In this document: positions 23,739 through 63,864 of the stretch, in pieces | Layout of the letters: each line of letters begins with the position of its first letter | How positions within the stretch are numbered: position 1 is the first letter of the stretch | Assembly (NCBI GenBank): GCA_965249045.1 | Contig: OZ252213.1 | Span: 9,329-73,328 of the forward strand | DNA: 64,000 nt | Source of the DNA: Thermodesulfobacteriota bacterium | Lineage (GTDB): Bacteria; Desulfobacterota_D; UBA1144; Nemesobacterales; Nemesobacteraceae | Direction: 5' to 3' | The notes under the pieces: generated by a model | Database searches by the model: none | What the model saw: the letters and a program-made list of their open reading frames with translations, nothing else | Told to the model about the DNA's origin: nothing | Position numbers and translations under genes: made by a program

Positions 23739-23750
23739 CCCGTTTTTTCC

Positions 23751-24700: not shown

Positions 24701-24717
24701 TTTTGTTACCTCCCTGC

Positions 24718-25926
24718 TCAGCTTATTACCGAAGTTAAATTCAATACGGGTAAAAGTATAGCGAAAACTATAAAACCCATCACGACGCCCATAATCAGTA
24801 TCATTACCGGTTCAAGAAGAGAAGTCAGCGTGGAAAGCATGCCGTCAACTTCAGTGTCGTACATATCGGCCACTTTCGAGAGCATGTCTTCAATTTTGCC
24901 GACTTCCTCACCCACAGATACCATTCTTACCACAAGAGGCGGGAAAATCCCGGTCTGCCCAAGACAGTCTCCAAACGCCGAGCCTTCCGCCACCTTGACT
25001 TGGACATCCCTGATATTTTCAACGTAAAGACTGTTTCCAAGAACCGATTCGCTCACCTTAATCGAGTCAAGAAGAGGAATACCGCTTGAAAGCAGTGTGG
25101 CAAGCGTCCTTGTAAAACGGGAGATCATCACTTTTGAAGACATTTTCCCGAACACAGGAATCCGAAGGGATAATCTGTCGTAGATCTTTCTTCCAGAAGG
25201 GGTTTTTACGTACCTGTGCGCGAAAAAGAATACGACGGCCGTAAAAACCAGCATCAGGGCGAAATTCTCCCTGAGAAAATCGCTTGCGCCTATAAGCACT
25301 ACCGTAACAAATGGCAAAGCCTTATTGCTGGCCTCGAATATATCGGCGACTTTGGGAATTACGAAAGTCATCATGAAGACAAGCACCCCCATCCCGACGA
25401 CAAACATTATCGCCGGATATACCATGGCGCCTCTGATCTTCGAAGTGAGTTCCAGTTGTTTTTCAAGAAAATCCGCGAGACGGTCGAGTACAACGTCAAG
25501 AGTGCCGCTTGCCTCGCCCGCGCGGACCATACTCACGTAAAGGTCGGAAAAAACGCTTTTGTGCTCCTCGAGTGCGGCGTGAAGAGAACTGCCTTCACTC
25601 AGTCGGTTTCTGACCTCGGAGAGAATCTCTTTCAGCTTCTGGTCATCGGTCTGCTCGTAGAGAGCCACAAGCGACGTCTCAAGAGGAAGACCGGCAGAAA
25701 TCAACGTGGAGAACTGCCTTGTCATAACGGCAAGTTCCGAGATGCTCACCCCGCTCCACGGAAGGCTTCTCGACGAGCGACGAGCCCCGGTAGACTCCTT
25801 TATGGAAGAAAGATAGACACCGCCTTTTCTGAGCTTGTCGCCTGCGGTCTTGACCGATTCTGCGCTGATAACCCCACTTACCGATTCGCCCTTGTCGTTA
25901 ATGGCTTTGTAGTTGTAAACAGGCAT
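24718..25926 (-). CDS. gspF: Type II secretion system inner-membrane platform protein GspF
   Basis: 402 aa, two T2SSF repeats, three TM segments. Confidence 0.9.
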   Translation of the reverse strand: MPVYNYKAINDKGESVSGVISAESVKTAGDKLRKGGVYLSSIKESTGARRSSRSLPWSGVSISELAVMTRQFSTLISAGLPLETSLVALYEQTDDQKLKEILSEVRNRLSEGSSLHAALEEHKSVFSDLYVSMVRAGEASGTLDVVLDRLADFLEKQLELTSKIRGAMVYPAIMFVVGMGVLVFMMTFVIPKVADIFEASNKALPFVTVVLIGASDFLRENFALMLVFTAVVFFFAHRYVKTPSGRKIYDRLSLRIPVFGKMSSKVMISRFTRTLATLLSSGIPLLDSIKVSESVLGNSLYVENIRDVQVKVAEGSAFGDCLGQTGIFPPLVVRMVSVGEEVGKIEDMLSKVADMYDTEVDGMLSTLTSLLEPVMILIMGVVMGFIVFAILLPVLNLTSVIS

Positions 25927-25958
25927 TTTGAAATACCGATGCTAAAGATAACCCCGGG

Positions 25959-27641: not shown

Positions 27642-27656
27642 TTTCTTAGAACTTCC

Positions 27657-30236
27657 CTACTCAAGCGTATTCAGATCCCTTTTGTGAAGCAAGGTCTTTC
27701 TTCTCTGGTAATCCATAAGCAGCTGCTTCATATCGCTTTCCGTCTCAACTATCCGCGGGGTAAGAAGTATCATCAGGTTAAGCTTCCTGCTCTGAGTGCG
27801 TTTGAACCTGAAGAGGTTTCCAATCAGCGGGATATCTCCAAGTAAAGGGGTCTTGTTGTGAAGCACCTCTTCTCTGTCCTGAACCAGCCCGCCTATAACA
27901 AGGGTCTGTCCGTTTTTGACTATAACCGATGAGCTGGCGCTTCTCGTCGTGGTTGCGATACCGAACTGGGCGGTATTAAGTCCCGAGGGCGCCTCCCGTG
28001 TGGAGGAAACTTCGGTAACTATGTCAAGGTTAAGGTATTCGCCTTCGCTTATCTGGGGTGTGATGCTGAGCCTTATTCCCACCGGCAGCCTCTCGATCGT
28101 CTGAACCGTCACGCCGCTTGTACCCACGGTGCTGCCCATCGGAAACGGTATTATGTCAGCAACCACTATCTCAGCCGGTTCGTTGTCGGTAGTGATAATG
28201 CTCGGGGTTGAGAGAACGTTGACGTCGGTCACGGAATTTAAAGCCTGGAACACCGCGGAGAACGAAGGAAGAGCCGGAAGGGGACCCGAACCGTCGGCAT
28301 CGATTTCCTCTCCCACAACGCCGAGAAAAAGTCCCGAGAGACTGCCTATGGCTGTCGCCGCGGTCGCGGGGTTGGCCGCGACTCCGAGAAGGCTCGGGAT
28401 GCCCGGCAGCTGCTGTCCGATAAAACCAAGGTTGTCGCCCTCGATTCTGAGACCGAGGCCGAAGTTGGTTCCCAGCGCACGCAGGTTGTCAAGACCCACC
28501 TCAAGTATGGCGGCCTCAACGAATACCTGTCTTCTTCTTACGTCAAGTTTGTCCACTATCTGCTTAACCATTCTGTACTGCGTGAGGGAACCGACCACTA
28601 TAATAGAGTTTGTCGCGGGATCCGAGGTTATCTTCAATCCATCGGAGGAAGATACGACTACGGAACTGCCGGTCTGTTGACTCCCTCCTCTTCCTATGTT
28701 CCGGCCTTGTGAGCCGAGACCGCCGACATCTCCGCGATTACTCAGGTTGCCCTCCCCGAGACGGTTTGAAGACTGGCTTGTTCTGCCGGATTGTCGCGTA
28801 TTATCGCGGTAGGAAGCAGAAGAGACAGAACTCCCTTTTCCCTCCGTGAACAGATTCCCGAGAACCTCGATTATCTGCTCGGCGTCGGCGTTTCTAACCG
28901 ATATAACATAGACATCCTGTTCGGCGTGTTCGCTTTTGATGTCCAAAACGGCGATCGTCTCCTTTATCAGGGGAAGGTCCCTCGGATCGGCAATCACTAT
29001 TATGGAATTTGTCCGCTCGTCGTTTATCACTTTAAAGCCCAGAAGCTCCGAGCTTCCAGATACGAATCCGTCGTTTTTACCTTTTGACGATTTGGTTTTG
29101 GCGCTTTGAGGGCTGAAGATCTCAAGCAGCTTGAAAATGACGTTGGCCGAACTTGTGTTATTCACCCTTACAAATTCTATTTTTTTATCATAATCAAGAC
29201 TCGCCACCACTTCCGCTATCCTGTTCACGTTATCTTCATTGTCAATTATGACCAGAGTGTTTGCCGGTGCGTAAGCCTTCATAAACCCTTCCTTGCTCAC
29301 GAGGCTTCTAAGAACGTTGGAGATCCCCTTGGCTTTTACGCTTTTAAGCTTTATCAGCTTCATCACGTATTTCTGGGAAGACTCTCCAAGGTCAAAATCC
29401 GACCTCAGCGGTATGCTCTCCGACTTTATCCCCTTTTTCGGAACGATCTTGTTGACTCCGTTTGCGCTTACAACCGAATAACCGTTCATATCAAGCAGTA
29501 TTTCAAAGATCCTAAACGCGTTCTCCCTCTCGAAACCACCCTGGGGAGTGATGATCGTCACGTTCTTGTCCCTGATCTTGTCACTTAGGAGATAAACCTC
29601 GGAGGTTATCTCACTTATGGTCTTCACCATTTCCTTAAGCGTCATGTTGGCGCGAAGGTTGACCATTCCCTGGTCTTCGAGAATTTCCTCGCCATCTTCT
29701 CCGACAGTATCATCACCGGAACCCCCGGCGATCTCCTCAGGTTCAGCTTTAGCGGTCTTCTCAGTTGAGTCCTCGGCGACCGCGGGCGACACCTCTTCAG
29801 GCTTCTGCGCTTCAGGCTCCGGGGCTTCCTGCGGTTCGGGCCCCGGCTCGGCTACAACTCCCGGCTGAGCCAAATCGATCGGGAGGCCGGGGTCTTCGAC
29901 GAAATCCTCAGCGACCTCGTTGCCGGAGACTTTAACCGCATCTTTGCCGAAGGGTCTTGTAACTTTTCTACCAGGATTCTTTGCGGCTTCCTCGGCTAAC
30001 GCCTTTGCGGCTTCTCTGACAATATCAGCAGGTTTCGGAGGCAAATCTTTTATGGACCCATTCTGCCCTTGCGCTTCCTGCTGTCCGGAACTCGGAGCGA
30101 CAACAGCCTTTAACGTCCTAGGATCCGGCGGCTCGGGGTTCTCGCCGGAAGCCGGCTGCGGACAGACTATCGAAGCGGAAAAAACGAGAACCGCCGACAG
30201 AACCAAAAAAAGATTTTTATCAAGAAAAGATCTCAT
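27657..30236 (-). CDS. gspD: Type II secretion system secretin GspD, with long acidic Pro/Glu-rich N-terminal extension
   Basis: Signal peptide, about 170 aa of low-complexity E/P/A-rich sequence, N-domains, a Ser/Gly-rich linker, and a C-terminal secretin domain (...VIGGLVQD...TPLLGDIPLIGNLFR...). Confidence 0.9.
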   Translation of the reverse strand: MRSFLDKNLFLVLSAVLVFSASIVCPQPASGENPEPPDPRTLKAVVAPSSGQQEAQGQNGSIKDLPPKPADIVREAAKALAEEAAKNPGRKVTRPFGKDAVKVSGNEVAEDFVEDPGLPIDLAQPGVVAEPGPEPQEAPEPEAQKPEEVSPAVAEDSTEKTAKAEPEEIAGGSGDDTVGEDGEEILEDQGMVNLRANMTLKEMVKTISEITSEVYLLSDKIRDKNVTIITPQGGFERENAFRIFEILLDMNGYSVVSANGVNKIVPKKGIKSESIPLRSDFDLGESSQKYVMKLIKLKSVKAKGISNVLRSLVSKEGFMKAYAPANTLVIIDNEDNVNRIAEVVASLDYDKKIEFVRVNNTSSANVIFKLLEIFSPQSAKTKSSKGKNDGFVSGSSELLGFKVINDERTNSIIVIADPRDLPLIKETIAVLDIKSEHAEQDVYVISVRNADAEQIIEVLGNLFTEGKGSSVSSASYRDNTRQSGRTSQSSNRLGEGNLSNRGDVGGLGSQGRNIGRGGSQQTGSSVVVSSSDGLKITSDPATNSIIVVGSLTQYRMVKQIVDKLDVRRRQVFVEAAILEVGLDNLRALGTNFGLGLRIEGDNLGFIGQQLPGIPSLLGVAANPATAATAIGSLSGLFLGVVGEEIDADGSGPLPALPSFSAVFQALNSVTDVNVLSTPSIITTDNEPAEIVVADIIPFPMGSTVGTSGVTVQTIERLPVGIRLSITPQISEGEYLNLDIVTEVSSTREAPSGLNTAQFGIATTTRSASSSVIVKNGQTLVIGGLVQDREEVLHNKTPLLGDIPLIGNLFRFKRTQSRKLNLMILLTPRIVETESDMKQLLMDYQRRKTLLHKRDLNTLE

Positions 30237-30278
30237 AACCTGTTTTAATCTTAAGAAACTGAATTTCTCACCGTGGGC

Positions 30279-31229
30279 CTAGTAAACCGTGTACCGATTG
30301 CTTTTTCTTTTACCTCTCCTCGTGAAATCAACGGTGAATTCGCTCTGACCCTTTAAATCGGTGAAAAGCGAGAGAGCGCTTTGCACGTCGTTTAAAGCGA
30401 CTTCATTTATCTGGTGAACTACATCCCCGTTTCTAAGACCCATCTTATAAAACACGCTTCTGCTCTTCACTCCGAAGATCTTGATGCCGTCATCGCGCGG
30501 CACAATCTTAGCCTCTGTTATTAAACTTCCGGGCTCAGCGAGCAGCTCGTCAAACATCCTTCTCTCTATCTGGTACACGCCATCGCTGACTTTGCTTACT
30601 CCCGAAGCTGACGACTTTTTTGACTTCGAGGACGGCTTGTTTTTTCCTGAAGAAGAACTGGGGGCGGTTTTTGAAAAAACTGATTCAAGCTCATTTCCGC
30701 ATGTAATCAGCTCCGGACCCTCGGCGCGACGTATAGTCACTTCGCAGTCGTCTATTCTCACTACCTCCACTTTCTCGGATGTTACAAGATCAACCCACTG
30801 CCCTTCAGAATAACCCTTTATTTTAAGATTTTCCATATTCTTTATTACAGCGACGCTCCTGTTCGCCGAAGGATGGGTGCGGCTTTTGAGTATGAAAGTT
30901 CCCAGAAGTTCAAGCTTAAGGGAGGTTTTCGGGGTAATTTCCCCCTCCAGAACTCCGGGAAGATCAGTGGTTTCCATCTGCCCTGCGTATCCACCCGCTC
31001 CAAACAGGTTCGTTTTCAATATTGAGTCGTAGTAGCTCCTTGAACGATAAGGAATCTTAACCCGTCCGTACTTCTCCTTATAGAGGTGTCCGCTTGTCAC
31101 ACCACCCTTGTCAGATTCTATTTTGTCGCGCAGGCCGTTGTTGATCATGGCCGCGACCGAGTACGCGATGGCGATTATCAGCAAGACATTTACGACCCAG
31201 ACATACTTTCTTAAAAGAAATAAGGGCAT
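30279..31229 (-). CDS. gspC: GspC-like T2SS inner-membrane component with C-terminal PDZ domain
   Basis: N-terminal TM anchor, central region, low-complexity Ser/Lys linker, C-terminal PDZ-like fold. Sits directly upstream of gspD. Confidence 0.55.
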   Translation of the reverse strand: MPLFLLRKYVWVVNVLLIIAIAYSVAAMINNGLRDKIESDKGGVTSGHLYKEKYGRVKIPYRSRSYYDSILKTNLFGAGGYAGQMETTDLPGVLEGEITPKTSLKLELLGTFILKSRTHPSANRSVAVIKNMENLKIKGYSEGQWVDLVTSEKVEVVRIDDCEVTIRRAEGPELITCGNELESVFSKTAPSSSSGKNKPSSKSKKSSASGVSKVSDGVYQIERRMFDELLAEPGSLITEAKIVPRDDGIKIFGVKSRSVFYKMGLRNGDVVHQINEVALNDVQSALSLFTDLKGQSEFTVDFTRRGKRKSNRYTVY

Positions 31230-36894: not shown

Positions 36895-39192
36895 CTATAA
36901 CCTTTGTCGGTAGGTTAGCTGCACACCGAAGGTTCTGCCTTTGGAGAGCGGCGCGAATGAACCTCCCGCGGGCGCGCTTAAGTGGGCAAATCCTATGGTT
37001 TCGGGAAGCTCAACATAGCTTCCGTGTTTGACTTCGTTAAGAAGGTTCTTTCCGTAAAATCCGATTGAGAACCCACCGTCCATTGGGGTGATGTCAATTC
37101 CGGCGTCAAGAATGTTCTGCTCGGGAGTATATCCTTTGTTGTCATCTGTAAGGTATGATTTGTCGCGATATGAGTAGCTTATCCTTGAAGTCATCTTCGC
37201 CCAGTTCGCAAGTCCAGCGTCATGGGTCGCGCCGAGGCTCCAAGTCAACTTCGCGGCCCGGGGAAGCTCTAAAGCTTTATCTTTTCCGTCAACAGTGTCG
37301 TCTAGATTAAGGTCATATTTTACTTTGGTGTACTCGGGATCTACGTATCCGACGGAACCCAAAAGAAAAAGCTTCTCGGTAACGGCGACCAGTCCGTCAA
37401 GTTCAAAGCCGAAGGCTTCTACATCCGCAGTGTTGCGAATCTCTTGGGCTATGCCGAACGCGACGTCAGAACGAGTTATCACCCTCTGCACATCATCAAT
37501 CAGGTTATAGAAAACCGCGCCGTTCAGGATGCCTATGTTTGTTGATATCTTGAATCCCGCCTCGAAGGTATCGATCTTTTCTTCATCGTACGGTCCCGGG
37601 AGTTCCACAGCTGAGGAAAAGGTGTTTCGCAGATTATAGCCTCCAGAGCGAAATCCTCTGGTCCAGTGTCCGTAAACGTTCGCTTCAAAGTTCGCTCCGC
37701 CGCCCATATAGTAGACAGCGCCGAGCTTGGGCGACCAACTGTTCCAAGTCGCCTCGTCGGTGAAATCAAACGGGCACGCGGGTCCGACCGCAACGTTGCA
37801 TGACATTTCCCTTCCTATCACGCCGCTTGTGTTGAGAATGCCGGAGGCGGTCTCAGCTTTTCTCTTGTCATAGCTGTAACGGGTGCCCGCGGTAAGCATT
37901 ATCCGATCCGTAAGGTCGTAATCAAGAGAGAGAAACACGCCTAGCGTATCGACGTGATAATTCCCTCCCACGTCTTGGGTAAAATGCTCTCCGGCGGGCA
38001 ATTCCCCAGCCGTGACAAGTCCGTCGATACGATCTCCAAGCAGATAACGGCGGTCATGATAATTTATCTCGTTTGTAAAGTAATAAAAACCGGTCGTCAC
38101 GTGGAGACTTTCGAAGAATCTGCCCACGTAGCGCAGCTCGTTGCTCCACTGGCGGTAGGGGGTCCATCCACGTATATGCAAAACGCTTTGCGGCGAAGAA
38201 TCGACATCAAGCAAAGCGGACCCGTCTGAGTCGTAAAAACCGAATATGTTGGTTATGGTGCCGTCTCCGAAATCCACATCCCAGTCCACCTGAGCGGAGA
38301 AAAAGTGAGTTCTATGCTCTCTGAAGCCTTCCTCGTCGATGCTGAAATCATGACTATCGATATCGAAGTCGCGCCGGTTCTGTCCCGCGGCGCCATTGCT
38401 GCTCGCACTTTCGTACTGGTAGCGCAGAACAAGGCTTACGTCATCCGTCGGGTTCCACGTAATCACCGGTCGTACCATCCGTACGTCGCCCTCTCCGAAA
38501 GCCTCGCCCGTGTGGAGATTCTTAAACCAGCCGTTATCCGTATTTCTGTACGCGCTTATCTTCACGCTGACGGTCTCGCTAATTGGGCCTCCGACTGTGC
38601 CCATGTAATAGCTGTTAAGGCTCTCTCCCCCTCCCTCAAACGAAGTGCGCGCCGATATCTCAAGAACGTCTCCCGGTTTTTTCGTGTTAATCAGTATGGC
38701 GCCCCCTGTGACATTCCGCCCGAAAAGCGTTCCCTGTGGTCCCCTCAGCACCTCTATGCTTTCAAGATCGAAGGTATCAAACAAAACGGTGGTTATCTGC
38801 CCTAGATACACGCCGTCGAGAAACACTCCCACGGTCGGATCAACAGACGCTATGGAGTTGTTTATTCCGACACCGCGGATGGAAAAGTTGGCTACTGCCA
38901 GTCCCGAGACGGCATCGTCAAGTGCCACATTGGGCATGCGCACTGCGAGACTTTCAAGGTCGTTTACCTTCAAGGCTTCAATCTGTTCCGAACTGAAATG
39001 GGTGATCGACAGGGGGACGTTCTGAATCAGCTCTTCTCGTTTTCGGGCGGTGACCGTGATTTTTTTGAGAAATACGCCGCTTACCCCGAACACATTCTGT
39101 GCAACTGCGTCACCGTCCTGCGCAACTGCGTCACCGCCGCCAAGCGACGCTAGGAGCACACCTGCGAGAAACGCGCTTAAAAACTTCTTCAT
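36895..39192 (-). CDS. TonB-dependent outer-membrane receptor
   Basis: Signal peptide, plug domain, 22-strand barrel pattern. Start set at MKKFLSAF because a TATAAT (39245-39250, minus sense) lies inside the longer ORF. Confidence 0.85.
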   Translation of the reverse strand: MKKFLSAFLAGVLLASLGGGDAVAQDGDAVAQNVFGVSGVFLKKITVTARKREELIQNVPLSITHFSSEQIEALKVNDLESLAVRMPNVALDDAVSGLAVANFSIRGVGINNSIASVDPTVGVFLDGVYLGQITTVLFDTFDLESIEVLRGPQGTLFGRNVTGGAILINTKKPGDVLEISARTSFEGGGESLNSYYMGTVGGPISETVSVKISAYRNTDNGWFKNLHTGEAFGEGDVRMVRPVITWNPTDDVSLVLRYQYESASSNGAAGQNRRDFDIDSHDFSIDEEGFREHRTHFFSAQVDWDVDFGDGTITNIFGFYDSDGSALLDVDSSPQSVLHIRGWTPYRQWSNELRYVGRFFESLHVTTGFYYFTNEINYHDRRYLLGDRIDGLVTAGELPAGEHFTQDVGGNYHVDTLGVFLSLDYDLTDRIMLTAGTRYSYDKRKAETASGILNTSGVIGREMSCNVAVGPACPFDFTDEATWNSWSPKLGAVYYMGGGANFEANVYGHWTRGFRSGGYNLRNTFSSAVELPGPYDEEKIDTFEAGFKISTNIGILNGAVFYNLIDDVQRVITRSDVAFGIAQEIRNTADVEAFGFELDGLVAVTEKLFLLGSVGYVDPEYTKVKYDLNLDDTVDGKDKALELPRAAKLTWSLGATHDAGLANWAKMTSRISYSYRDKSYLTDDNKGYTPEQNILDAGIDITPMDGGFSIGFYGKNLLNEVKHGSYVELPETIGFAHLSAPAGGSFAPLSKGRTFGVQLTYRQRL

Positions 39193-39369
39193 TCCAGATT
39201 TGAATTTCCTTTTAATTATTTCGATGGCCTCCTTTTTGTCAGGAATTATAACATAATTCTGCACGAAAAATCCAAGTCATCAGATTATTGCATAACGGGA
39301 CTTGTAGCGCGGCATGAAACGCCCGGTTACAGCGGACGCACAGGCATGCTTCGCCGCACAGGCAGCAAA

Positions 39370-42986: not shown

Positions 42987-43253
42987 TTACGTATTCTTTG
43001 CTTTTAGGGGGAATTTTTCAGGATTTTCAATTATTTCTTCCGTAACATCAATATCAATATCAGGCCAATAGAAATGACCTGGTGACGGTTCTTCAACATT
43101 GATGATTGATTTCACAGACTGATCCTTAAACCAAGGAAAATCATCATAAGACATAAATAACTCTTTTCCGTGAGCCAGAAGCCATACTCCATGAGCAGAG
43201 ATATTTGTCACCTCAATCGTCGAAATGCTGCTCCCATGCTGCAATAAGCTCAT
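42987..43253 (-). CDS. DUF2442-family small protein
   Basis: ...IEVTNISAHGVWLLAHGKELFMSYDDFPWF... pattern. The start is ambiguous (ATG at 43253 or at 43280) and overlaps the upstream gene. Confidence 0.55.
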   Translation of the reverse strand: MSLLQHGSSISTIEVTNISAHGVWLLAHGKELFMSYDDFPWFKDQSVKSIINVEEPSPGHFYWPDIDIDVTEEIIENPEKFPLKAKNT

Positions 43254-43452
43254 CGTAATGAACCTCCACAAGTAATTCAATTTCCTTGAGTTGATGTATA
43301 GAATAACGATAATTCTTTGCTAACTCAATTTTAGGTTCAAGCCAAAACTTCGCCTCTCCATCGCTGGATACTACATGGACATGCATTCGTTGTTCTTCTC
43401 TTGAGAAAAAGAAGAATCGATACCCTCTTTCTTTAAATACCGTTGGACTCAT
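43213..43452 (-). CDS. DUF4160-family small protein
   Basis: MSPTVFKERGYRFFFFSREEQRMHVHVVSSDGEAKFWLEP matches the DUF4160 N-terminal signature (F.G..F.F...EH.PPH.H). Confidence 0.6.
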   Translation of the reverse strand: MSPTVFKERGYRFFFFSREEQRMHVHVVSSDGEAKFWLEPKIELAKNYRYSIHQLKEIELLVEVHYDELIAAWEQHFDD

Positions 43453-43710: not shown

Positions 43711-45645
43711 TTACGAATGGTTTTCCCGGTACTCGTAATGCCGTGCGAACAAGAAGAAGGCAAGGACAAGCAGAACACATTGGGGAATCGCGGTTTCATA
43801 AGTGGGATATATCCCGAGAGTACCCATATAAGGAATGAAATCCGCTGAAGTTGAAGAAATAATTCCCGATTCCTGAAGTTCGAGTATTCCCTTGCCAAGC
43901 AGTATGAAGCAGAGTAGATAGAGAAAAACGCTCGCAAAGGAAAAAAAGTATTTAAGAGGGATCCTGAGAGTAAATCTGTACATAAGAAAAGCTATGACGA
44001 ACACGACGGCTACTCCCGCAACAAGCCCATAGATTACGTGAGGCGTGGAGGAACCGGTCTGGTAAAAAAGTGCCTGATAGAAAAGCAGCGTCTCAAAAGC
44101 CTCTCTATAGACGGCCAGAAACGAAACAAAGGCAAGAGTAAGGCCGCTTCTTCGGGTAAGCGCGCCTTCGGTTTTGGAGCGAACGTATTCCTTCCACTTT
44201 TTTACGTCTGCCTTTGAGACAAGCCAGTAGCTCACGTAGAAAAGAACCACGGCTGCCAGAAGGGAAGTCACTCCCTCGACAATTTCCCTCCTCGCTCCCG
44301 AGATATCTATCATGGTCCTGGCCGCTGCCCATGTCGCAAACCCCGCAAGAATGGCCGCTATCCAGCCGTAGTGAACGTATTTGATCATACCGCGATTCCC
44401 GGAGTGGACCAAAGCGGCGATGATGGCAGCCATTATCAACAGGGCCTCAAGGGCTTCTCTCAGTATTATGGAAAAGGAATTAACGAAACTTAGGTATTTG
44501 CCGAGAGACGAACCGCCCATAAGTATGTTCTCCGCCTCGCGCAGATCGCCCTCTATGCTCGCTTTTAGATCTCGCAGTTCGGAGGAATCTCTGTCGGACA
44601 TTACCCATGACCTGAAAAATCCCATTTTCTTCTCAACCTTAAAAACAAGGGAGCTCTTTTTTGAGACCAAAGCAGGTTCAATTTTCTGAAAGCCCCCTAG
44701 ATACCCGTCGAGAGCCTCCCTGAAAGCCTCATCCTTTCTGCCAGCCTCGTAAAGATCGATAGCTTTTTCAAGCTTATCGATGGTATGGGCTATAGCTTCC
44801 GAAGCCCCTCCGGCAATTCCATCCCTCAGGTAAGCGGTTCTCAGGTAAAAAAGAACATGCTGATCACTGCCCCCACCCCCCGCGGTCAAGAGAAGCTCCG
44901 CATTGCTCGCTAGGGCTAGATTTTCAAGCTTTCTCGTATGATCCGAGATGTTCTTGGGGGGGGACCCTGAAGTGCCCCCGCCCGGGGGAATATCCATATA
45001 TCCGAGCGAAAGAACGTAAAACGCCACATCCCATTTCTGTTCTTCGTCAAGCACCTCTTCGAACGATCCCATGGCGGTACCCTCAATCCCGAAAGTCGCA
45101 GTGTTATAAACTTTAAAGGGGGAAAGACCAAAATTTACGTCGGGATCGGTAAAATCCGTGGCAGGAGGGTTAAGATTTTTAGACAGAACCCCATCTCCCC
45201 TTCCGGAGACCCCATGACAGGAGGAACAGTTCTCCGCATAAAGCACCCTTCCGCTTTCGTAATCCGGAATTTTCGCCGGGTAGGGCTTTATGTTATAGGC
45301 AGAAATAATCTGTCCCTTCAGTTCATTGGCAAGACTTTCCACCTCAGAGACAGGGCCCTTGGATACTATAATTGAGTGTAGGAGCGCAAATTTTTCGGAA
45401 AAATCCGCGGTTTCTCTTCCTTTTTGCGGAGTCTTTTCCCACAGTTCAACCGCGGCGGAAGAAAAATCCAGCATTTCCTGATACTCAAATTCGTTTATGA
45501 TCTCCCCATCTTTTACGGCGTTTGAGTAATCTCCCCCTATGTAGTCAACCAGAGAAAGAATCCTGTCTATCTCTCCCGCGTAGGAAAGCCCCGGAAAAAG
45601 AAAGAACATGAGAACAAATATATGGAAGAAGCTTTCTCTAAACAT
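43711..45645 (-). CDS. Cytochrome c - FTR1 iron permease fusion protein
   Basis: Signal peptide. Periplasmic domain with heme-binding CSSCHG. C-terminal 7-TM FTR1 domain with both RExxE motifs (REALEAL, REAFETL). Confidence 0.8.
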   Translation of the reverse strand: MFRESFFHIFVLMFFLFPGLSYAGEIDRILSLVDYIGGDYSNAVKDGEIINEFEYQEMLDFSSAAVELWEKTPQKGRETADFSEKFALLHSIIVSKGPVSEVESLANELKGQIISAYNIKPYPAKIPDYESGRVLYAENCSSCHGVSGRGDGVLSKNLNPPATDFTDPDVNFGLSPFKVYNTATFGIEGTAMGSFEEVLDEEQKWDVAFYVLSLGYMDIPPGGGTSGSPPKNISDHTRKLENLALASNAELLLTAGGGGSDQHVLFYLRTAYLRDGIAGGASEAIAHTIDKLEKAIDLYEAGRKDEAFREALDGYLGGFQKIEPALVSKKSSLVFKVEKKMGFFRSWVMSDRDSSELRDLKASIEGDLREAENILMGGSSLGKYLSFVNSFSIILREALEALLIMAAIIAALVHSGNRGMIKYVHYGWIAAILAGFATWAAARTMIDISGARREIVEGVTSLLAAVVLFYVSYWLVSKADVKKWKEYVRSKTEGALTRRSGLTLAFVSFLAVYREAFETLLFYQALFYQTGSSTPHVIYGLVAGVAVVFVIAFLMYRFTLRIPLKYFFSFASVFLYLLCFILLGKGILELQESGIISSTSADFIPYMGTLGIYPTYETAIPQCVLLVLAFFLFARHYEYRENHS

Positions 45646-45818
45646 AGTTTATGACCGGCTCTCCATCTGGGGATTTGGAAGCGTATTTTCTACCATTCTA
45701 GACCTTCATTGTCAATAATCTTTCGCGGCTATGGTTTCCACCTTTGTTTTTCATCAAAGAGGTGGAAAAAACTGGTGATTATTCGAATTTATCAATACGC
45801 AGATATTTTTTTAAATTC

Positions 45819-45847
45819 TTGACATCATAACTCCACAATGTTATAAA
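45819..45847 (+). promoter_or_regulatory. Strong sigma70-type promoter for the porin/FMN-bind operon
   Basis: TTGACA (45819-45824), 17 nt spacer, TATAAA (45842-45847). Confidence 0.45.
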
Positions 45848-45855
45848 TCTACATC

Positions 45856-45874
45856 CTGGATATAGAATATCCAG
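45856..45874. promoter_or_regulatory. Perfect 19-bp palindrome CTGGATAT-AGA-ATATCCAG (candidate operator)
   Basis: Read directly. Begins 9 nt after the -10 hexamer, about 50 nt before the porin start. Confidence 0.4.
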
Positions 45875-45924
45875 AATATCTGCTGTTTATGCAAGAATAA
45901 ATCCTAAAGGAGGATGTTAAAAGA

Positions 45925-47238
45925 TTGGGTAATAATACGACACGGTGGAAAATGCTTTTTGTATTTTTCCTGATTTTTTCACTCGGGGGAGCGCAGATTT
46001 CTCTCGCGCGCACAACTTCTGAGGAAAGGATAAAAAAGCTTGAGGAACAGATAAAGGTTCTCGCGGACGAAATAGAAGCCATCAAATCCGCTTCGGTAAC
46101 AGAACCTCCAGTCTACGAAACGGAACTCGGGGTGGCCCCGGCGGCTTCAAGGGTCTATAGGGTTGACCAGGGAGTATCTTTCGGAGGATACGGTGAACTG
46201 CTTATAGGCAACGTGAAAGAGGATTCGCACAACACGGTGGATACCCTGAGAGTAATTCTCTACAACGGCTACAAATTCAATGACCACATAGTTTTTAACT
46301 CGGAGATAGAGTTTGAACACGGTACGACGGGAAAAAACAAAGACGAAAAATCGGGGTCAGCATCGGTTGAGTTCGCGTTGCTTGATTTCCTCATCAGCGA
46401 TGAATTTAACTTGAGAGGCGGCCTTCTCTTAGCTCCTTTCGGGGTCATCAGCGAAATTCACGAGCCGACGACATTTTACGGGGTGGGAAGACCTTCGGTT
46501 GAGAGACAGATAATTCCGACTACCTGGAGAGAGGCCGGGGCCGGGGTTCACGGAACGTTTAATCTAGGTAGTGCCGGATCGCTTTCTTACAGGGCCTACG
46601 GAATGTCGAGCTTTGATTCACGGGGATTTCTGGCATCCAATAACAGAAGTCTTCGGGTCAAGGGAAACAGGGCAAGATTCGACGACATAGCTTTTGTGGG
46701 AAGGGTTGAATACGACCCCATTCCGGGAGTAAAGATCGGAGGATCCATGTTTTACGGCAACACGGGGCAGGATGAAAAAGTTGACGGTAAGACAATAGAC
46801 GGTCTTTTCCAGATGTATGAAGTGGATGCGCAGCTTCAGTACGCGGGACTGGACTTAAGGGCCTTGTCCGTGTGGGCCAGCCTTGACGACGCAGAGCTCA
46901 TAAACCAGAACAACGGGCTTGAAGGCAGCGGGTCCGTCGGGGAAAAACAATCTGGCTGGTATGTTCTCGGAGGATACAACATCTTCTCCCTTCTTAACTC
47001 CGGAAACAAGTACATGGAATATCTGGCGCCTTTTGTCCGGTACGAAAAATACGGCACCCAGAAGGAGATTCCAGCCGGGTTTGAGAGAAACCCCGCAAAT
47101 GATAGAACCGAATATACCTTCGGAGTAAATTACAAGCCGATTCCAAACGTGGTCATAAAAGCCGAATATCAGAAGCTTGATAACGACGCGGATGAGGCAA
47201 AGGATCAGTTCAACTTTGGGTTAGGATATGTGTTCTAG
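45925..47238 (+). CDS. Outer-membrane beta-barrel porin with N-terminal coiled coil (phosphate-selective porin O/P-like)
   Basis: Signal peptide, coiled-coil heptads (RIKKLEEQIKVLADEIEAIKS), alternating beta-strand pattern, C-terminal ...FNFGLGYVF. TTG start after AAGGAGG; an ATG at 45952 is the alternative. Confidence 0.55.
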   Translation: MGNNTTRWKMLFVFFLIFSLGGAQISLARTTSEERIKKLEEQIKVLADEIEAIKSASVTEPPVYETELGVAPAASRVYRVDQGVSFGGYGELLIGNVKEDSHNTVDTLRVILYNGYKFNDHIVFNSEIEFEHGTTGKNKDEKSGSASVEFALLDFLISDEFNLRGGLLLAPFGVISEIHEPTTFYGVGRPSVERQIIPTTWREAGAGVHGTFNLGSAGSLSYRAYGMSSFDSRGFLASNNRSLRVKGNRARFDDIAFVGRVEYDPIPGVKIGGSMFYGNTGQDEKVDGKTIDGLFQMYEVDAQLQYAGLDLRALSVWASLDDAELINQNNGLEGSGSVGEKQSGWYVLGGYNIFSLLNSGNKYMEYLAPFVRYEKYGTQKEIPAGFERNPANDRTEYTFGVNYKPIPNVVIKAEYQKLDNDADEAKDQFNFGLGYVF

Positions 47239-47343
47239 GACATAGAACTTAAATCCGCGAAAAACGGGCGCGGGTTTATGCTTCTTTTTTTCTCTCTCTT
47301 CACAAGGGGCAATATTCAGATAGGATGTTGCCCTTATTCCATC

Positions 47344-47895
47344 ATGACTGCAAAAATCCTTGTTTTCATAACGCTTGTGTTTTTTCTCCATGGCGCGGGA
47401 GACTCCTCTGCCAAAGTCCTTCTCACCAAGGGCAAGGCACTTGAGCTTGTTTTCCCGGAAGCCGACGAAATAGAGAAAAGACATGTTTTTCTTACCGAGC
47501 GCCAAGCCAAGAGCATAAGTAAAATGGCCAAGGCCGAGATAGATTCAAGGCTTTATACCTTCTACATAGCAAAGTCCGGCGGGAAGGAAACAGGCTATGC
47601 GGTTATCGATACTCACACGCTTCGAACCCTGACCGAAACCGTAATGTTCGTAATAAATCCCAATGGAACACTTCGCCACGCTGAAATTCTCGCGTTTTTC
47701 GAACCCACAGATTACATGCCGAGCGGAAAGTGGATAAACTTGTTCCCAGGAAAAACCAAACTGGGCAGAATGAAGGTAGGCAAAGGAATCCCCAATATTA
47801 CAGGAGCCACGATAAGCGCCAGATCTTTTTCAAGAGCCATAAGAAGGGTTCTCGCCGTCTACCGGGTTGTGGTTGCCAATACGGCTGATTCGTAA
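47344..47895 (+). CDS. Periplasmic FMN-binding domain protein (ApbE flavinylation substrate)
   Basis: Signal peptide. FMN_bind-like domain with flavinylation motif NITGATIS ([S/T]GAT). Confidence 0.7.
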   Translation: MTAKILVFITLVFFLHGAGDSSAKVLLTKGKALELVFPEADEIEKRHVFLTERQAKSISKMAKAEIDSRLYTFYIAKSGGKETGYAVIDTHTLRTLTETVMFVINPNGTLRHAEILAFFEPTDYMPSGKWINLFPGKTKLGRMKVGKGIPNITGATISARSFSRAIRRVLAVYRVVVANTADS

Positions 47896-47913
47896 TTATC
47901 CGAAGAGGGAAAA

Positions 47914-48411
47914 ATGGAGTTCTTCGTCTCAGGGGACATAAGAAAAAACGACCTGCTGAAACTCGTCGTTCTGTTCACAACACTTTTCTTTCTCTTTTTG
48001 TGGCTAACCAATCTGCTGCTTTTTCTGAAGGTGGGATTCAGCTATGAAAGCGTCGTTGAGTACTACAGGGGCTCCGAGGAGAGTTTCAGGCCTCCGAGAA
48101 GCTACCTGGGGCTGCTTGAAGAAGCCCATTTTCATTTTTTCTCGATGGCCGTTTTGCTGGTAACTCTTAACCACCTTTTTCTTTTTACTAACAGAAGTTC
48201 CGCCGAAAAACTCCTCGTGATAATCGCATCTTACGGCTCGGCCTTTCTAGATATAGCCGGCGGCTGGCTCGTAAGGTATGTAAGCGCCGAATTCGCCTAT
48301 GTTAAAATCGGCTCTTTCGTCGTCCTTCAAATATCTCTTCTTTACCTAATCATCTTTGTAACGGTTTACCTTTACGGAAAAAAACCCGAGTATCCACAGC
48401 CGCCACGATGA
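47914..48411 (+). CDS. Small 4-TM membrane protein with TM histidines
   Basis: Four hydrophobic helices. His in EAHFHFF and LNHLFLF. No family recognised. Confidence 0.45.
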   Translation: MEFFVSGDIRKNDLLKLVVLFTTLFFLFLWLTNLLLFLKVGFSYESVVEYYRGSEESFRPPRSYLGLLEEAHFHFFSMAVLLVTLNHLFLFTNRSSAEKLLVIIASYGSAFLDIAGGWLVRYVSAEFAYVKIGSFVVLQISLLYLIIFVTVYLYGKKPEYPQPPR

Positions 48412-48421
48412 CCCCGGCACA

Positions 48422-49399
48422 CTAGCGGCACACGTAAGACCCGAAGCAGGATTTTTTCTCCCCGTTTTTCCCAATGACCAGAAAACCCTGGGATTTATCC
48501 TTCCGGGCAAGCATCTGTGCGCCACGCGGGCCCAGAACCGAGACTGCTGTCGAAAAAACATCCGCCTCCGTGGCAGTCTTCGAAACGGCAACCACTGAAG
48601 TCAGATCTTCTGCGGGCTGACCTGTCCTAGGGTCAATTATATGAGAGTACCTTTTCCCCGCATGCTCAAAGTAGCGCTCGTAATCCCCTGAAGTCGCGAC
48701 ACCCTTGTTCGCAAGATTAAGCTTCGAGATAATTTCACTTCCACCCCCGGGTCTTCTTACACCTACTTCCCAGAATTTTTTGCCGGCGGGAGAACCCATC
48801 GCGTATATGTTTCCCCCGAAATTTACAAGTCCCTTAGTGATTCCGTTTTCCTTGGCGATCTTTACCATCTCATCGACGGCATAGCCCTTCCCTATGGCGC
48901 CGAAATCGAGTCGGACGCAGTCGCCGTCAAGGAAAATCTGGGATTTCGCCTCATCTACCTTTATTCTCCGAAAACCCGTACACCCAAGCGCGTCGCGAAT
49001 CCGCGATTGCGAAGGCAGCCGTCCCGCTTCGGTCTCAGCCTGCCAGAGTTTAAAAAGACTGCCGATAGTTATGTCAAAAGCTCCGTCGGTTAATTCTGAG
49101 TACCTGATCGAGGTCCGTACGAGACGCAGGAACTCCTCTGGAACGGAAACGGGACGAATTCCCGCGTTTCTGTTCACTTCCGCAAGAACGCTGTCATCCC
49201 TGTAGTTGCTGAAAAGCCGGTCTATCTCTTTGGTCCTCTCCACGCAGGCATCAACAACCCGGTGGAAAAGCTCCTCGCTCGGGGAATAGAGCTTAAGCTC
49301 TATGGTCGAACCCATAGAGTGAAAGGATCTCTCGTAGAGATGCTCCGTGCCGTAGGAGCAGGAACAGAAAAGCAGAACTAAAAGCGCAAGCAGGCGCAT
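48422..49399 (-). CDS. apbE: FAD:protein FMN transferase ApbE (secreted/lipoprotein)
   Basis: ApbE family pattern (...GAIGKGYAVDE..., ...TSGDYERYF...). N-terminal signal/lipoprotein sequence. Confidence 0.85.
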   Translation of the reverse strand: MRLLALLVLLFCSCSYGTEHLYERSFHSMGSTIELKLYSPSEELFHRVVDACVERTKEIDRLFSNYRDDSVLAEVNRNAGIRPVSVPEEFLRLVRTSIRYSELTDGAFDITIGSLFKLWQAETEAGRLPSQSRIRDALGCTGFRRIKVDEAKSQIFLDGDCVRLDFGAIGKGYAVDEMVKIAKENGITKGLVNFGGNIYAMGSPAGKKFWEVGVRRPGGGSEIISKLNLANKGVATSGDYERYFEHAGKRYSHIIDPRTGQPAEDLTSVVAVSKTATEADVFSTAVSVLGPRGAQMLARKDKSQGFLVIGKNGEKKSCFGSYVCR

Positions 49400-61210: not shown

Positions 61211-62065
61211 GTGAGTATCAAAAATCTGTTTGCGGCGGTTCTGCTTGTCCTGACCGTCGCGCCTGTGGCGTGCCTGGCGAGAACACCCTGCCCCAAAAAC
61301 ATAATCTCGCTTACTTTAGCCTCAGACGAAATACTCGTTGACATTGTCGGTGACAGAAAAAAGATAGCCGCGCTCACCTATTTCTCGACAGACCCGCTGA
61401 TTTCAAACGTAGTGGAGAAAGCACAGGGAATTCCGCAGGTCCGGGCGAACCTCGAACAGGTAATCACGAAATCTCCCGATCTCGTGATACTCGCGAGCCA
61501 CACGAACCCGAACATACGCGCGCACCTTGAGGCGGCAGGAATAAAGGTGCTTGTGCTCCACAAAATCGTCTCGCTTGAGAGCATAAAAAAGAACATAAAG
61601 ATGTTGGGAGATGCGGTCTGCGAGGGGACCGCGGCAAAAACCCTCGTAGAGAACATGGAAAAACAGGTCGCAGACGCCAGAGCGAAAATCCCTCCGGACG
61701 CAAAAGCCCCGACGGTTCTTTTTTACGGAGCTCCCGGGTTTACAGTCGGCAAACACACGACCGTAAACGATATAATAGAAAGTTCCGGAGCCATCAATCT
61801 TCCGGCCCGACTCGGGCTAAGCGGATACAGCAACATATCGACTGAGTACGTAATCCAAAACAACCCTGACCTGGTTCTTACAAGTAGTTATAATCCTTCT
61901 CACCCGGACTTTGTCGGCCAGATGTTCCAAAATTCCGCTTTCAGGGACAAAAAGATTATAGTCGTCGCGGGAAAGCATCTGGACGCCGCGTCTCATTACG
62001 CGGCGCAGGCCGTAATCGATCTGGTGAACTTGATTTTCAGAACGCAAAACAATGCCGATCGGTAA
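61211..62065 (+). CDS. ABC transporter substrate-binding protein, class III (TroA/BtuF/FhuD-like)
   Basis: Signal peptide. Two-lobe Peripla_BP_2 pattern. Start overlaps the downstream permease gene. Confidence 0.8.
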   Translation: MSIKNLFAAVLLVLTVAPVACLARTPCPKNIISLTLASDEILVDIVGDRKKIAALTYFSTDPLISNVVEKAQGIPQVRANLEQVITKSPDLVILASHTNPNIRAHLEAAGIKVLVLHKIVSLESIKKNIKMLGDAVCEGTAAKTLVENMEKQVADARAKIPPDAKAPTVLFYGAPGFTVGKHTTVNDIIESSGAINLPARLGLSGYSNISTEYVIQNNPDLVLTSSYNPSHPDFVGQMFQNSAFRDKKIIVVAGKHLDAASHYAAQAVIDLVNLIFRTQNNADR

Positions 62066-63089
62066 AAAAACGCTTTCCGTATACGTAATACTCGCTTCCC
62101 TTCTTGTGTTAACCGTCGTCGCATGCGTCTCGCTCGGGGCGGTGAGCGTTCCGTTTGACGATGTATTCCGCGTAATAGCTGGCAAATTACTCTGGTTAGA
62201 TGCAGAAGCGGGGATTGAAAAATCACATGAACTTATCGTATGGAACGTGAGGCTTCCGAGGGTTCTGCTCGCCGCGACCATAGGTGGAGGTCTCTCAATT
62301 GTAGGAGCGGTAATGCAGGCGATGTTCAGAAATCCTCTGGCTGAGCCCGGAATACTGGGCTGGTCAAGCGGAGGAGCGTTTTTCGCCGTCTTGGCTATCT
62401 ACACCGGTATTTACCAGCGGTGGTTTCTCCTGCTCCCTCTTGTCGCTTTCGCAGGCACCCTTCTCACGGCATATACGGTCTATGGAATATCCCGCTACAG
62501 GGGGTTTGTCGAGAACACGACACTTCTTCTCTGCGGAGTAGCCCTTGGAACGCTTTTTGTCTCTCTTACGACTTTTGTGCTTTCTGTATCAAACGCATGG
62601 TCCATGAAGGAAATGCTTTTCTGGATAATGGGCGGAGTCGACTCGCGCACATGGACGCATTTCGCGATGGCAGCAGCGCCAGTGCTCACCGCCTCGATCA
62701 TACTGCTTTTTTACGCGAAGAACCTAAACGCAAGACTCCTTGGCTACGAAACGGCCAAGACCCTAGGCGTTGACATCGAAAAAACGACAAGACACCTGAT
62801 AGTTCTCAGTTCCCTTATAGTCGGAGCAAGTGTGGCGGTAAGCGGTATCGTAGGATTCGTCGGACTTATAATCCCGCACTCAGTAAGACTCATAATCGGA
62901 GTGGACCATCGACGGCTTCTGCCCGCGAGTTTTATCGCGGGAGCCATTTTTTTGCCCGTAGCTGACCTTATAGCAAGAACCGTTATGAGCCCTCAGGAAC
63001 TGCGGCTCGGAATAATTACTTCTTTTATCGGAGTTCCTTTCTTTGTGTTTCTGCTGAGGCGAAATTTCAGCGGAAAAGGAATCGCATAA
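62052..63089 (+). CDS. ABC transporter permease, FecCD/BtuC family
   Basis: About 10 TM helices with the FecCD conserved region. Confidence 0.85.
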   Translation: MPIGKKTLSVYVILASLLVLTVVACVSLGAVSVPFDDVFRVIAGKLLWLDAEAGIEKSHELIVWNVRLPRVLLAATIGGGLSIVGAVMQAMFRNPLAEPGILGWSSGGAFFAVLAIYTGIYQRWFLLLPLVAFAGTLLTAYTVYGISRYRGFVENTTLLLCGVALGTLFVSLTTFVLSVSNAWSMKEMLFWIMGGVDSRTWTHFAMAAAPVLTASIILLFYAKNLNARLLGYETAKTLGVDIEKTTRHLIVLSSLIVGASVAVSGIVGFVGLIIPHSVRLIIGVDHRRLLPASFIAGAIFLPVADLIARTVMSPQELRLGIITSFIGVPFFVFLLRRNFSGKGIA

Positions 63090-63090
63090 A

Positions 63091-63864
63091 ATGCAAAAAG
63101 AAAAACAATCCATAAAGGCATCGGAATTGAGTTACGGCGTAAACGGGAAAACAATAGTTGCCGACGCAAGCTTTGAGATCGAAAAAAACGAGTTTCTTTG
63201 TGTAATAGGCCCTAACGGAGCAGGAAAGTCCACGCTTCTTCGGCTTCTCACCCGGATACTCAACCCCTCGGAGGGCCGCATACTGCTTGACGGAAAAGAT
63301 CTCCGCCAGTACGAGGCAAAAAAGCTTTACAGAAAAATATCGTTTCTCCCCCAGACATCCTATTTCGATTTTCCGCTAAGCGTACTTGAGGTAGTGCTCA
63401 CGGGGAGATATCCGTATCTCGGAATTCTCGAGAGCGAGAGCGAAGAGGATATAAAACGAGCCGAGGACTGTCTTTCGCTTGTAGACATGGAGGGGTTTTC
63501 TCAAAGAAAAGTAACGACGCTTTCGGGAGGAGAGCAGCAGAGGGTGTCGATCGCGAGGGTGCTTGCGCAGGAAACGGATTTTATTTTCCTTGACGAACCC
63601 TCTTCCCACCTCGACATACATCACAAGTTCGCTCTCATGGAGCTGCTCAGATCAATCGCGCGGAAAGGAAAAGGAGTCGTCGCGGTTCTCCATGATCTGA
63701 GTCTTGCCAGCAGGTTCTGCGACAGGGTGCTTGTGCTTGAAAACGGACGGACCGTCGCCCTTGGGGAACCGTCGCGTGTGCTTTCCGAAAAACTTCTCTC
63801 ATCGGTATTCAAAGTAAAGGGTTCCCGGGATCCGGGAAACGGAAATCTTTTTGTTTTCCGTTAA
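63091..63864 (+). CDS. ABC transporter ATP-binding protein (FecE/BtuD-like)
   Basis: Walker A GPNGAGKST, signature LSGGEQQR, Walker B FIFLDEP. Confidence 0.9.
   Translation: MQKEKQSIKASELSYGVNGKTIVADASFEIEKNEFLCVIGPNGAGKSTLLRLLTRILNPSEGRILLDGKDLRQYEAKKLYRKISFLPQTSYFDFPLSVLEVVLTGRYPYLGILESESEEDIKRAEDCLSLVDMEGFSQRKVTTLSGGEQQRVSIARVLAQETDFIFLDEPSSHLDIHHKFALMELLRSIARKGKGVVAVLHDLSLASRFCDRVLVLENGRTVALGEPSRVLSEKLLSSVFKVKGSRDPGNGNLFVFR

Follow-up and report, generated by a model that had tools for sequence, protein, structure and literature searches.

A putative flavinylation-associated extracytosolic redox or iron-assimilation cassette beside a cytochrome c/FTR1 permease gene in a Thermodesulfobacteriota bacterium

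A stretch of 64,000 nucleotides from a Thermodesulfobacteriota bacterium (assembly GCA_965249045.1, contig OZ252213.1, positions 9,329 to 73,328 of the forward strand), hereafter the window, carries five envelope genes between its positions 43,711 and 49,399. They encode a cytochrome c/FTR1 permease and, across a divergent intergenic region, an outer-membrane porin, a secreted FMN_bind protein, a four-transmembrane (4-TM) protein of the Pfam family PF27139 (Aq_1264_TM), and an ApbE-type transferase of flavin mononucleotide (FMN). The window is part of a metagenome-assembled contig of 1.85 Mb (ENA ERZ25766727), and its nearest relatives are labelled Candidatus Dadabacteria or Thermodesulfobacteriota. 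Our analysis demonstrates that the genuine conserved unit is the four-component cassette of porin, FMN_bind, PF27139 and ApbE, because these genes keep their synteny across phyla and because 4TM-ApbE fusions occur. A prior interpretation made from the letters alone (the sequence-only reading) had proposed one self-contained system of all five genes. Its flavin module and a recurring link to iron stand, but the five-gene unity does not: the permease gene adjoins the cassette in only one clade of Dadabacteria and stands alone in sister genomes.

The region as a whole appears to be a flavinylation-associated extracytosolic redox or iron-assimilation system, located beside a permease architecture that is known but uncharacterised. 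We favour the view that the cassette is a flavinylation-dependent periplasmic ferric reductase feeding iron permeases, a view that we hold with evenly divided confidence.

To describe the conservation, we scanned genomes with the 4-TM alignment, keeping one genome per species, and typed the genes at the resulting 80 loci by tblastn with the window proteins and by clustering of open reading frames (ORFs). The loci span Dadabacteria/Thermodesulfobacteriota, Entotheonella, Methylococcaceae, Methyloversatilis, Rokubacteria, Binatia and Acidobacteriota. The FMN_bind gene lies directly upstream of the 4-TM gene in 79 of the 80, the exception being at a contig end, and the order porin, FMN_bind, 4-TM on the same strand is found in 77/80 independent loci. 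Synteny of the orthologues in other genomes, on which the earlier proposal depended, is therefore observed across phyla for the porin, FMN_bind, 4-TM and ApbE genes. The cassette is near-universal in Dadabacteria and occurs also in Entotheonella, methanotrophs and Rokubacteria.

The position of ApbE is more variable. We define group A as the window's own clade and group B as the other Dadabacteria loci. An apbE gene is present within the locus in 42/81 cases, comprising all 27 of group A and 15 of the 54 others, and takes three placements: upstream or downstream on the same strand, or convergent. In four cluster representatives at 50% identity (P0131, P0132, P0137 and P0133), the 4-TM protein is fused to ApbE via an extra transmembrane (TM) helix. 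A metagenome scan with the alignment of this fusion yielded two loci, one of which (L087) is informative: the porin and FMN_bind genes are followed by the 4TM-ApbE fusion, with only housekeeping genes around. A seeming FMN_bind-4TM fusion ORF in L071 was rejected as an off-frame, high-GC artefact.

All five ORFs of the sequence-only reading are present where it had placed them. Its domain calls are upheld by Pfam scans, motif positions and family-level profiles, and its envelope location by hydropathy profiles, in which each protein has an N-terminal signal-like segment or TM helices. The gene caller refines two starts, setting the porin at 45952 and the FMN_bind protein at 47344 rather than 47278, and both refined ORFs begin with clean signal peptides.

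The FMN_bind protein of the window scores by itself 20.5-20.9 bits against a Pfam cut-off of 22 (PF04205). Its diverse relatives, however, match Pfam FMN_bind at E<0.01 in 17 of 17 cases (best 1.4e-8), and the family profile matches RnfG (9eri_G) at 3e-9, with Thr156 of the TGAT motif aligned to the flavinylated Thr. This motif occupies residues 153-156 in the context PNITGATIS, and Thr156 (codon 47809-47811) is the predicted flavinylation site. The flavinylation motif is kept in 18/19 diverse orthologues; its form is I[TSA]GAT throughout, with GST in L087 and one GAM exception. The signal peptide ends with an AxA-type cleavage site before KV. Family profile, motif conservation and signal peptide agree with a secreted FMN_bind protein that carries an ApbE target motif.

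The ApbE protein reaches 282.6 bits with PF02424 (cut-off 25.6), and its N-terminus forms a hydrophobic, Cys-containing signal, MRLLALLVLLFCSCS. Profile and N-terminal signal together indicate a secreted, putative FMN transferase, as had been read. With the E. coli-type equivalog, the score of 185 falls short of the cut-off, which is 498.

It is conceivable that the adjacency of ApbE is coincidental and that the enzyme serves a distant Nqr, Rnf or NosR instead of the FMN_bind protein, since other targets may exist in the genome beyond the 64-kb window. We regard this as very improbable. ApbE adjoins the cassette in about half of the loci, across phyla and in the three arrangements given above, it is fused to the cassette's own 4-TM protein, and the flavinylation motif is invariant apart from the GAM exception. 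Furthermore, no rival ApbE target shows up in the window, whose precomputed Pfam annotation lacks Nqr, Rnf, NosR, DUF2271 and DUF3570.

The 4-TM protein is the least familiar component of the cassette. Precomputed PF27139 matches are also present on 120/120 homologues among the matches listed, and the name 'aq_1264' is absent from the literature searched. The family is small, with 624 representatives at E<=1e-3 in a search of 1.84 billion cluster representatives. An AlphaFold2 model (predicted local distance difference test, pLDDT, 80.6) consists of four TM helices and a short periplasmic amphipathic helix. The invariant residues are E55, E69, H72, H74, H87, K99, W118 and K131, and the aromatic residues Y50, Y51, F58, F76 and W118 are conserved. 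Conserved histidines had been assigned to two helices, which is incorrect: the alignment and the model place H72, H74 and H87 all in TM2. The way in which charges are distributed, together with the fusions to ApbE, implies that both termini are cytoplasmic (N-in/C-in); the periplasmic face would therefore hold E55, E69, H72 and H74, and the cytoplasmic face H87 and K99.

Tandem-duplicated relatives with eight TM helices (n=23, including P0128, P0133 and P0136) are instructive in this respect. Repeat A retains H72 in 23/23 and E69 in 20/23, and never H74 or H87; repeat B retains H74 and H87 in 23/23, and H72 in just three. Because the two repeats divide these residues between them, the 4-TM protein probably works as a dimer in which only one H72/E69 and one H74 are required. 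The asymmetric retention of histidines points to an inter-subunit site, to which one subunit would contribute E69/H72 and its partner H74, and which could be a bis-His haem b site or a 2-His-1-carboxylate metal site.

Gene content, domains, motifs, folds, synteny and fusions are what the analysis establishes; from them we infer the flavinylation itself, which cofactor the 4-TM protein has, in which direction electrons flow, iron as the substrate and the coupling to FTR1, as follows. The OprP-like porin, presumably of the trimeric type, would admit a small solute to the periplasm, where ApbE would have attached FMN covalently to Thr156 of the FMN_bind protein. The PF27139 dimer would be the inner-membrane partner, most likely passing electrons from the quinol pool to the flavoprotein, and would act via the inter-subunit site of E69/H72 and H74. 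Once reduced, the flavoprotein would pass its electrons on to the solute that has entered, most probably complexes of Fe(III), which would become Fe(II). The cassette (45952-49399) would thereby be an assimilatory periplasmic ferric reductase, and its Fe(II) product would be taken up by whatever permease is available, here the neighbouring cytochrome c/FTR1 protein.

The same residues can be read in another way. The PF27139 dimer might itself be a divalent-metal (Fe2+/Mn2+) permease rather than the point of electron input, with E69/H72 and the H74 of the other subunit as a 2-His-1-carboxylate entry and H87 and K99 as the cytoplasmic exit. In that event the cassette would form a three-compartment reductive uptake system of porin, flavin reductase and permease that operates without FTR1, and the electron donor of the flavoprotein would be unlinked to it. 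The retention of exactly one E69/H72 and one H74 in the tandem forms agrees with such a permease, as do the conserved polar residues at both membrane faces and the usual lack of a known iron permease near the cassette.

Two fusions also bear on the permease explanation. PF27139 is joined to a DtxR-type Fe_dep_repr_C domain plus FeoA in P0204 and to PilZ in P0156, and cytoplasmic C-terminal domains of these kinds are typical of regulated transporters. Each fusion is, however, seen in one cluster representative only, and the two may be real regulated variants or artefacts of gene calling. Moreover, neither a Pfam profile search at E<=10 nor a fold comparison found likeness to any transporter family, an FTR1 permease encoded in the same operon in Rokubacteria (see below) would be redundant, and the electron donor would be left unexplained. 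We therefore consider a PF27139 permease unlikely.

A further alternative is that the 4-TM protein is an exporter of flavin adenine dinucleotide (FAD) or an ApbE helper that supplies periplasmic ApbE. The FMN_bind protein would in this case be a general electron carrier to nearby c-type haem enzymes (CCP/MauG, DHOR and the FTR1 cytochrome c domain), and the cassette a flavin-trafficking and maturation unit with no defined substrate. The recurring 4-TM-ApbE fusion through an extra TM helix is in line with this, and flavin transporters are known in flavinylation clusters (PMC10979944). In addition, the conserved aromatics listed above could stack on the isoalloxazine ring, the variable neighbours are all c-type haem proteins, and OprP/OprO-like porins are of the phosphate/pyrophosphate type, groups that FMN and FAD carry. 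On the other hand, known flavin transporters (RibU, Bfe/MATE) do not resemble a 4-TM dimer whose His and Glu are invariant, and the cassette occurs in few lineages (the 624 representatives) although all ApbE users need periplasmic FAD. ApbE is also not adjoining in about half of the loci, whereas FMN_bind is always present. An exporter or helper role seems quite improbable to us.

The porin had been read as an outer-membrane porin with an N-terminal coiled coil, and this is confirmed: the protein has a signal peptide, an N-terminal periplasmic coiled coil and the 16-stranded barrel that characterises the OprP/OprO porins (PF07396). At the sequence level, the window porin reaches no porin Pfam cut-off and has no Porin_O_P match at E<=0.1, a few homologues have precomputed PF07396 matches, and the family profile finds no match among the PDB sequences.

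Two segments of the porin are invariant in the family. One is the strand NSEIEFEH (residues 113-123), with alternating E118, E120 and E122; since these residues alternate along the strand, the Glu stripe should face the lumen. The other is the loop between strands 5 and 6 (residues 161-195; NEIHEP..RPxVE..IPTTWRE), which lies where classical porins have their constriction loop, L3. A flavinylated barrel of the DUF3570 type was also considered and rejected: 13 porin orthologues contain no [ST]GA[ST] motif, and there is no DUF3570 match in Pfam.

The link between the flavin cassette and iron, which the sequence-only reading had drawn, recurs independently in Rokubacteria, in Entotheonella and in the DtxR-like fusion. 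One Rokubacteria locus (L066) has a same-strand operon of FTR1, ApbE, porin, FMN_bind and 4-TM genes (L066:282-4990), in which a plain FTR1 gene comes first; its product scores 128.6 bits with PF03239 and contains REAFE and REGAE. Genes for TonB and a TonB-dependent receptor lie beside the cassette in both Rokubacteria loci (in L066, at 6283-9473), and an imelysin-DHOR-imelysin-DUF1513 cluster abuts it in Entotheonella. The occurrence of an FTR1 permease together with the cassette, in two lineages only, suggests a role in iron uptake.

The neighbourhoods do not all indicate iron, and a redox role unrelated to it, such as electron supply to periplasmic peroxidases that detoxify peroxide or reduction of an anionic solute entering through the OprP-like porin, with an incidental FTR1 adjacency, has to be weighed. 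In the Methylococcaceae loci L067 (7982-9340) and L079 (7425-9400), a CCP_MauG di-haem peroxidase gene separates porin from FMN_bind, and in L056 such a gene lies nearby. The best fold match of the porin is an anion-specific one, and most loci have no iron genes in the vicinity. Against this, FTR1 adjoins the cassette in two unrelated phyla with different architectures, iron is indicated by the neighbouring TonB/receptor and imelysin genes as well as by the DtxR-type fusion, and the porin family has an invariant Glu stripe that should face the lumen, OprP using an arginine ladder. A function outside iron metabolism is in our estimate distinctly unlikely. In L079, a gene for a cohesin-domain protein is also inserted in the operon.

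The permease gene itself is well defined. Its product matches Pfam FTR1 (PF03239) at 101.2 bits (cut-off 25.3) and Cytochrom_C at 40.9 bits (cut-off 21.3), with Cytochrome_CBB3 also at about 40 bits. It is composed of a signal peptide, a periplasmic part of about 370 residues with a class I cytochrome c domain, and then the FTR1 domain. The haem motif CSSCH at residue 140 and a distal Met in GTAM at 189 are those of a class I c-type cytochrome, and 6h5l_B has cytochrome domains with which this domain can be aligned (1e-19). REALE at 396 and REAFE at 514 are both within hydrophobic segments, and an additional REIVE occurs at 453. CSSCH, GTAM, REALE and REAFE are invariant in orthologues down to 55% identity (the REXXE pair in 8 orthologues). 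The proposed fusion of a c-type cytochrome to FTR1 with both RExxE motifs is accordingly supported by scores and motifs alike.

The protein misses the EfeU equivalog cut-off NF041756 (112.6 against 255 bits). A cytochrome c N-terminal to FTR1 is an architecture already named by NCBI; homologues at 81% and about 49% identity are so named, and the name recurs in an Idiomarina genome. No experimental study of this architecture was found in the literature searched.

The FTR1-family paradigm is oxidase-coupled transfer of Fe(III), not plain import of Fe(II), and EfeUOB and FtrABCD fall under the same paradigm. Its Fet3/Ftr1 form is summarised in PMC4460010. In view of this paradigm, the fused haem probably serves as a partner of the ferroxidase type rather than as a donor of electrons to the flavoprotein. 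The second unit (43711-45645) would be an autonomous permease; its haem c domain, placed at the entrance of the REXXE permease, probably acts as the ferroxidase, as Fet3/Ftr1, FtrB/FtrC and EfeO/EfeU suggest by analogy. In the Dadabacteria clade of the window, both units could act serially, reducing and releasing iron first and then importing it in an oxidase-coupled manner, as in yeast Fre1 followed by Fet3/Ftr1.

The permease gene adjoins the cassette only in group A, in 26 loci and in divergent orientation, and those loci also keep the whole tig-clpPX...M16 synteny. In the window, a pair of small genes, DUF4160 and DUF2442 (42987-43452, minus strand), lies between the trigger factor and permease genes; since it is present in only about 8 group-A loci, it seems to be a recent insertion.

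The intergenic region between the two units contains a promoter for each, both read by eye. The promoter scanner reported neither, because its rule demands T at position 6 of the -10 hexamer. The permease promoter (minus strand) consists of TTGACA at 45715-45710, an invariant 17-nt spacer, ATGAAGGTCTAGAATGG, and TAGAAA at 45692-45687. This block is kept in all group-A loci and is missing upstream of the stand-alone group-B orthologues, and the invariance of the spacer suggests an overlapping regulator site.

The promoter of the porin operon (plus strand) consists of TTGACA at 45819-45824, 17 nt, and TATAAA at 45842-45847. Just 3' of it, the inverted-repeat scan found a perfect palindrome with 8-bp arms, CTGGATAT-aga-ATATCCAG (45856-45874). 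This is the only copy in the window and is kept in group-A loci, including L037 at 55% identity; it could be an operator for some repressor or a hairpin of the 5' untranslated region. At 45735-45768 lies a perfect inverted repeat, TTTCCACCT/AGGTGGAAA, whose 9-bp arms are 16 nt apart; of the aligned loci, none but the window and L002, its closest relative, has it.

Several observations weigh against the cassette as a ferric reductase coupled to the permease. Most loci, among them about 35 group-B Dadabacteria and most Methylococcaceae, have housekeeping neighbours only, and OprP, the closest porin fold, is specific for anions. At 60-70% protein identity, other genes already intervene between permease and porin, or the porin is inverted. 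In group-B Dadabacteria, the permease orthologue of about 49% identity stands alone between the genes for methylmalonyl-CoA mutase and queC, and in genome GCA_021604765 (L069), permease orthologue and cassette are on separate contigs. Within group A, the two divergent promoters bear different conserved elements in the alignment. A Fur box was not recognised in 45646-45924 by eye against the classical 19-mer, which may not be the Fur motif of this phylum.

The remaining points of this kind concern the 4-TM protein. It has no detectable sequence or fold kinship to any known redox protein, resembling only generic helix bundles; its family profile finds nothing in Pfam at E<=10 nor among PDB sequences, and 32 diverse members give no match to the PepSY-like, MsrQ-like or DUF4405 families even at E<=10. 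Its histidines, in one helix and with one H87 per pseudo-dimer, misfit a two-haem transmembrane wire, and this candidate was downgraded on account of the single H87 of the tandem forms. Finally, the PilZ and DtxR-like fusions suit a regulated transporter better than an electron conduit.

A bolder form of the ferric reductase view is that porin, FMN_bind, PF27139 and ApbE form an unrecognised TonB-independent machine for reductive iron acquisition over three envelope layers, with the PF27139 dimer as a new type of redox or metal-handling protein. The His/Glu site of PF27139 would here either wire quinol electrons to the periplasmic flavin or carry Fe(II) inward, and the family would add another class, without structural kinship to the others, to the membrane partners associated with flavinylation. 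We put this forward tentatively and regard it as doubtful.

The significance of the cassette is related to the emerging role of ApbE-flavinylated proteins as a general extracytoplasmic electron route, often for the acquisition of iron. The cassette is compact, crosses phyla, has its own outer-membrane porin and is linked to FTR1 in two phyla. The asymmetric retention of histidines in the tandem relatives gives a precise, testable prediction for its cofactor site. If the ferric reductase assignment is true, it would explain the iron supply of abundant uncultured marine and sponge-associated Dadabacteria and of some methanotrophs, and it would provide a bacterial counterpart of the reduce-then-reoxidise pathway of yeast for FTR1-type permeases.

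Table 1. Positions of the permease gene, the intergenic region and the cassette genes in the window
Feature	Position	Strand	Basis or remark
Cytochrome c/FTR1 permease	43711-45645	-	Pfam, NCBIfam, motifs, orthologue conservation, hydropathy
Divergent intergenic region	45646-45951	.	Sequence, group-A alignment, inverted-repeat scan
OprP-like outer-membrane porin, 428 aa	45952-47238	+	Alternative TTG start 45925
Secreted FMN_bind protein, 183 aa	47344-47895	+	Alternative ATG start 47278
Inner-membrane 4-TM protein, 165 aa	47914-48411	+	Pfam PF27139 Aq_1264_TM
Extracytosolic ApbE FAD:protein FMN transferase, predicted, 325 aa	48422-49399	-	Pfam; convergent with cassette operon

Elsewhere in the window, further iron- or chelate-uptake genes are a TonB-dependent receptor gene (36895-39264, minus strand) and a Peripla_BP_2/FecCD/ABC transporter operon (61211-63864, plus strand). 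The window also contains a full type II secretion cluster (21629-31229, minus strand) with secretin, GspE, GspF and pseudopilins, and a gene for a transposase of the Transposase_mut family (7096-8544, plus strand).

Among known systems, the closest to the FMN_bind protein are RnfG, NqrC and the N-terminal domain of NosR, which share with it the domain, the flavinylated Thr in a [ST]GA/ST motif and the periplasmic location. Unlike RnfG and NqrC, the window protein is stand-alone and secreted and is no subunit of an Rnf or Nqr complex, and there is no Fe-S membrane domain of the NosR type here. The porin, in turn, shares only 11-15% sequence identity with OprP, OprO and DcaP. OprP has an arginine ladder; the motifs invariant in the family of the window porin include the Glu stripe, and the cassette porin is always the first gene of a flavoprotein operon.

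The connection between flavinylation and FTR1 as such was already published in 2021 (PMC8238504). In the parts of that survey available, Meheust et al. (2021) describe 260 P19/FTR1 clusters with FMN_bind, mostly Gram-positive, as well as associations with VIT1, and define five classes of membrane electron transfer; Huang et al. (2024; PMC10979944), in the corresponding parts, add DUF4405 and FezC cytochromes. A PF27139-type 4-TM partner or a porin-led cassette does not occur in the available text of either survey, and PF03239, Dadabacteria and PF07396 do not occur in the supplementary files available for the former. As in the window, the P19-FTR1 clusters of PMC8238504 co-locate an FTR1 permease with an ApbE-flavinylated FMN_bind protein, and a redox aid to iron uptake has been proposed for them. 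The window differs from these clusters, as far as they are described there, in that P19 is missing and in that an outer-membrane porin, PF27139 and a cytochrome c fused to FTR1 are added; the linkage of the cassette to FTR1 is also not general. The statement on P19 (PF10634), and likewise that on EfeO and EfeB, rests on the precomputed Pfam annotation of the window, in which none of them is present.

According to the same sources (PMC8238504, PMC10979944), an extracytosolic flavoprotein and a His-rich membrane cytochrome (PepSY-like, MsrQ-like or DUF4405, and FezC by homodimerisation) commonly occur together in flavinylation clusters, and ties of such clusters to iron recur. The systems of PepSY-like (FoxB/VciB), MsrQ-like, DUF4405 and FezC proteins, as described there, resemble the cassette in that apbE is accompanied by genes for a small inner-membrane protein with histidines and for a flavinylated protein outside the cytosol, often in association with iron, and FezC provides a precedent for a cofactor site formed by homodimerisation (PMC10979944). 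In contrast to the membrane cytochromes of these descriptions, the 4-TM protein has three invariant histidines in one helix instead of two His pairs across helices, and four TM helices instead of three or six. The cassette also has a dedicated porin. To the extent that the partner classes are described in these sources, PF27139 is unrelated to the NapH-, MsrQ-, PepSY-, DsbD-, Nqr/Rnf-like and DUF4405 ones.

Lastly, yeast Fre1-Fet3-Ftr1, EfeUOB and FtrABCD have in common with the window an FTR1 permease with two REXXE motifs, a reductase that frees Fe(II), and a redox partner at the permease. The arrangement was said to differ from EfeUOB, FtrABCD and FetMP, and rightly so; FtrD, too, is not found in the window. 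In comparison with Fre1, the reductase here would be a covalent flavoprotein rather than a homologue of the cytochrome b NADPH oxidases. In comparison with Fet3, EfeUOB and FtrABCD, the fused class I cytochrome c would replace the multicopper oxidase, the cupredoxin or EfeO/EfeB.

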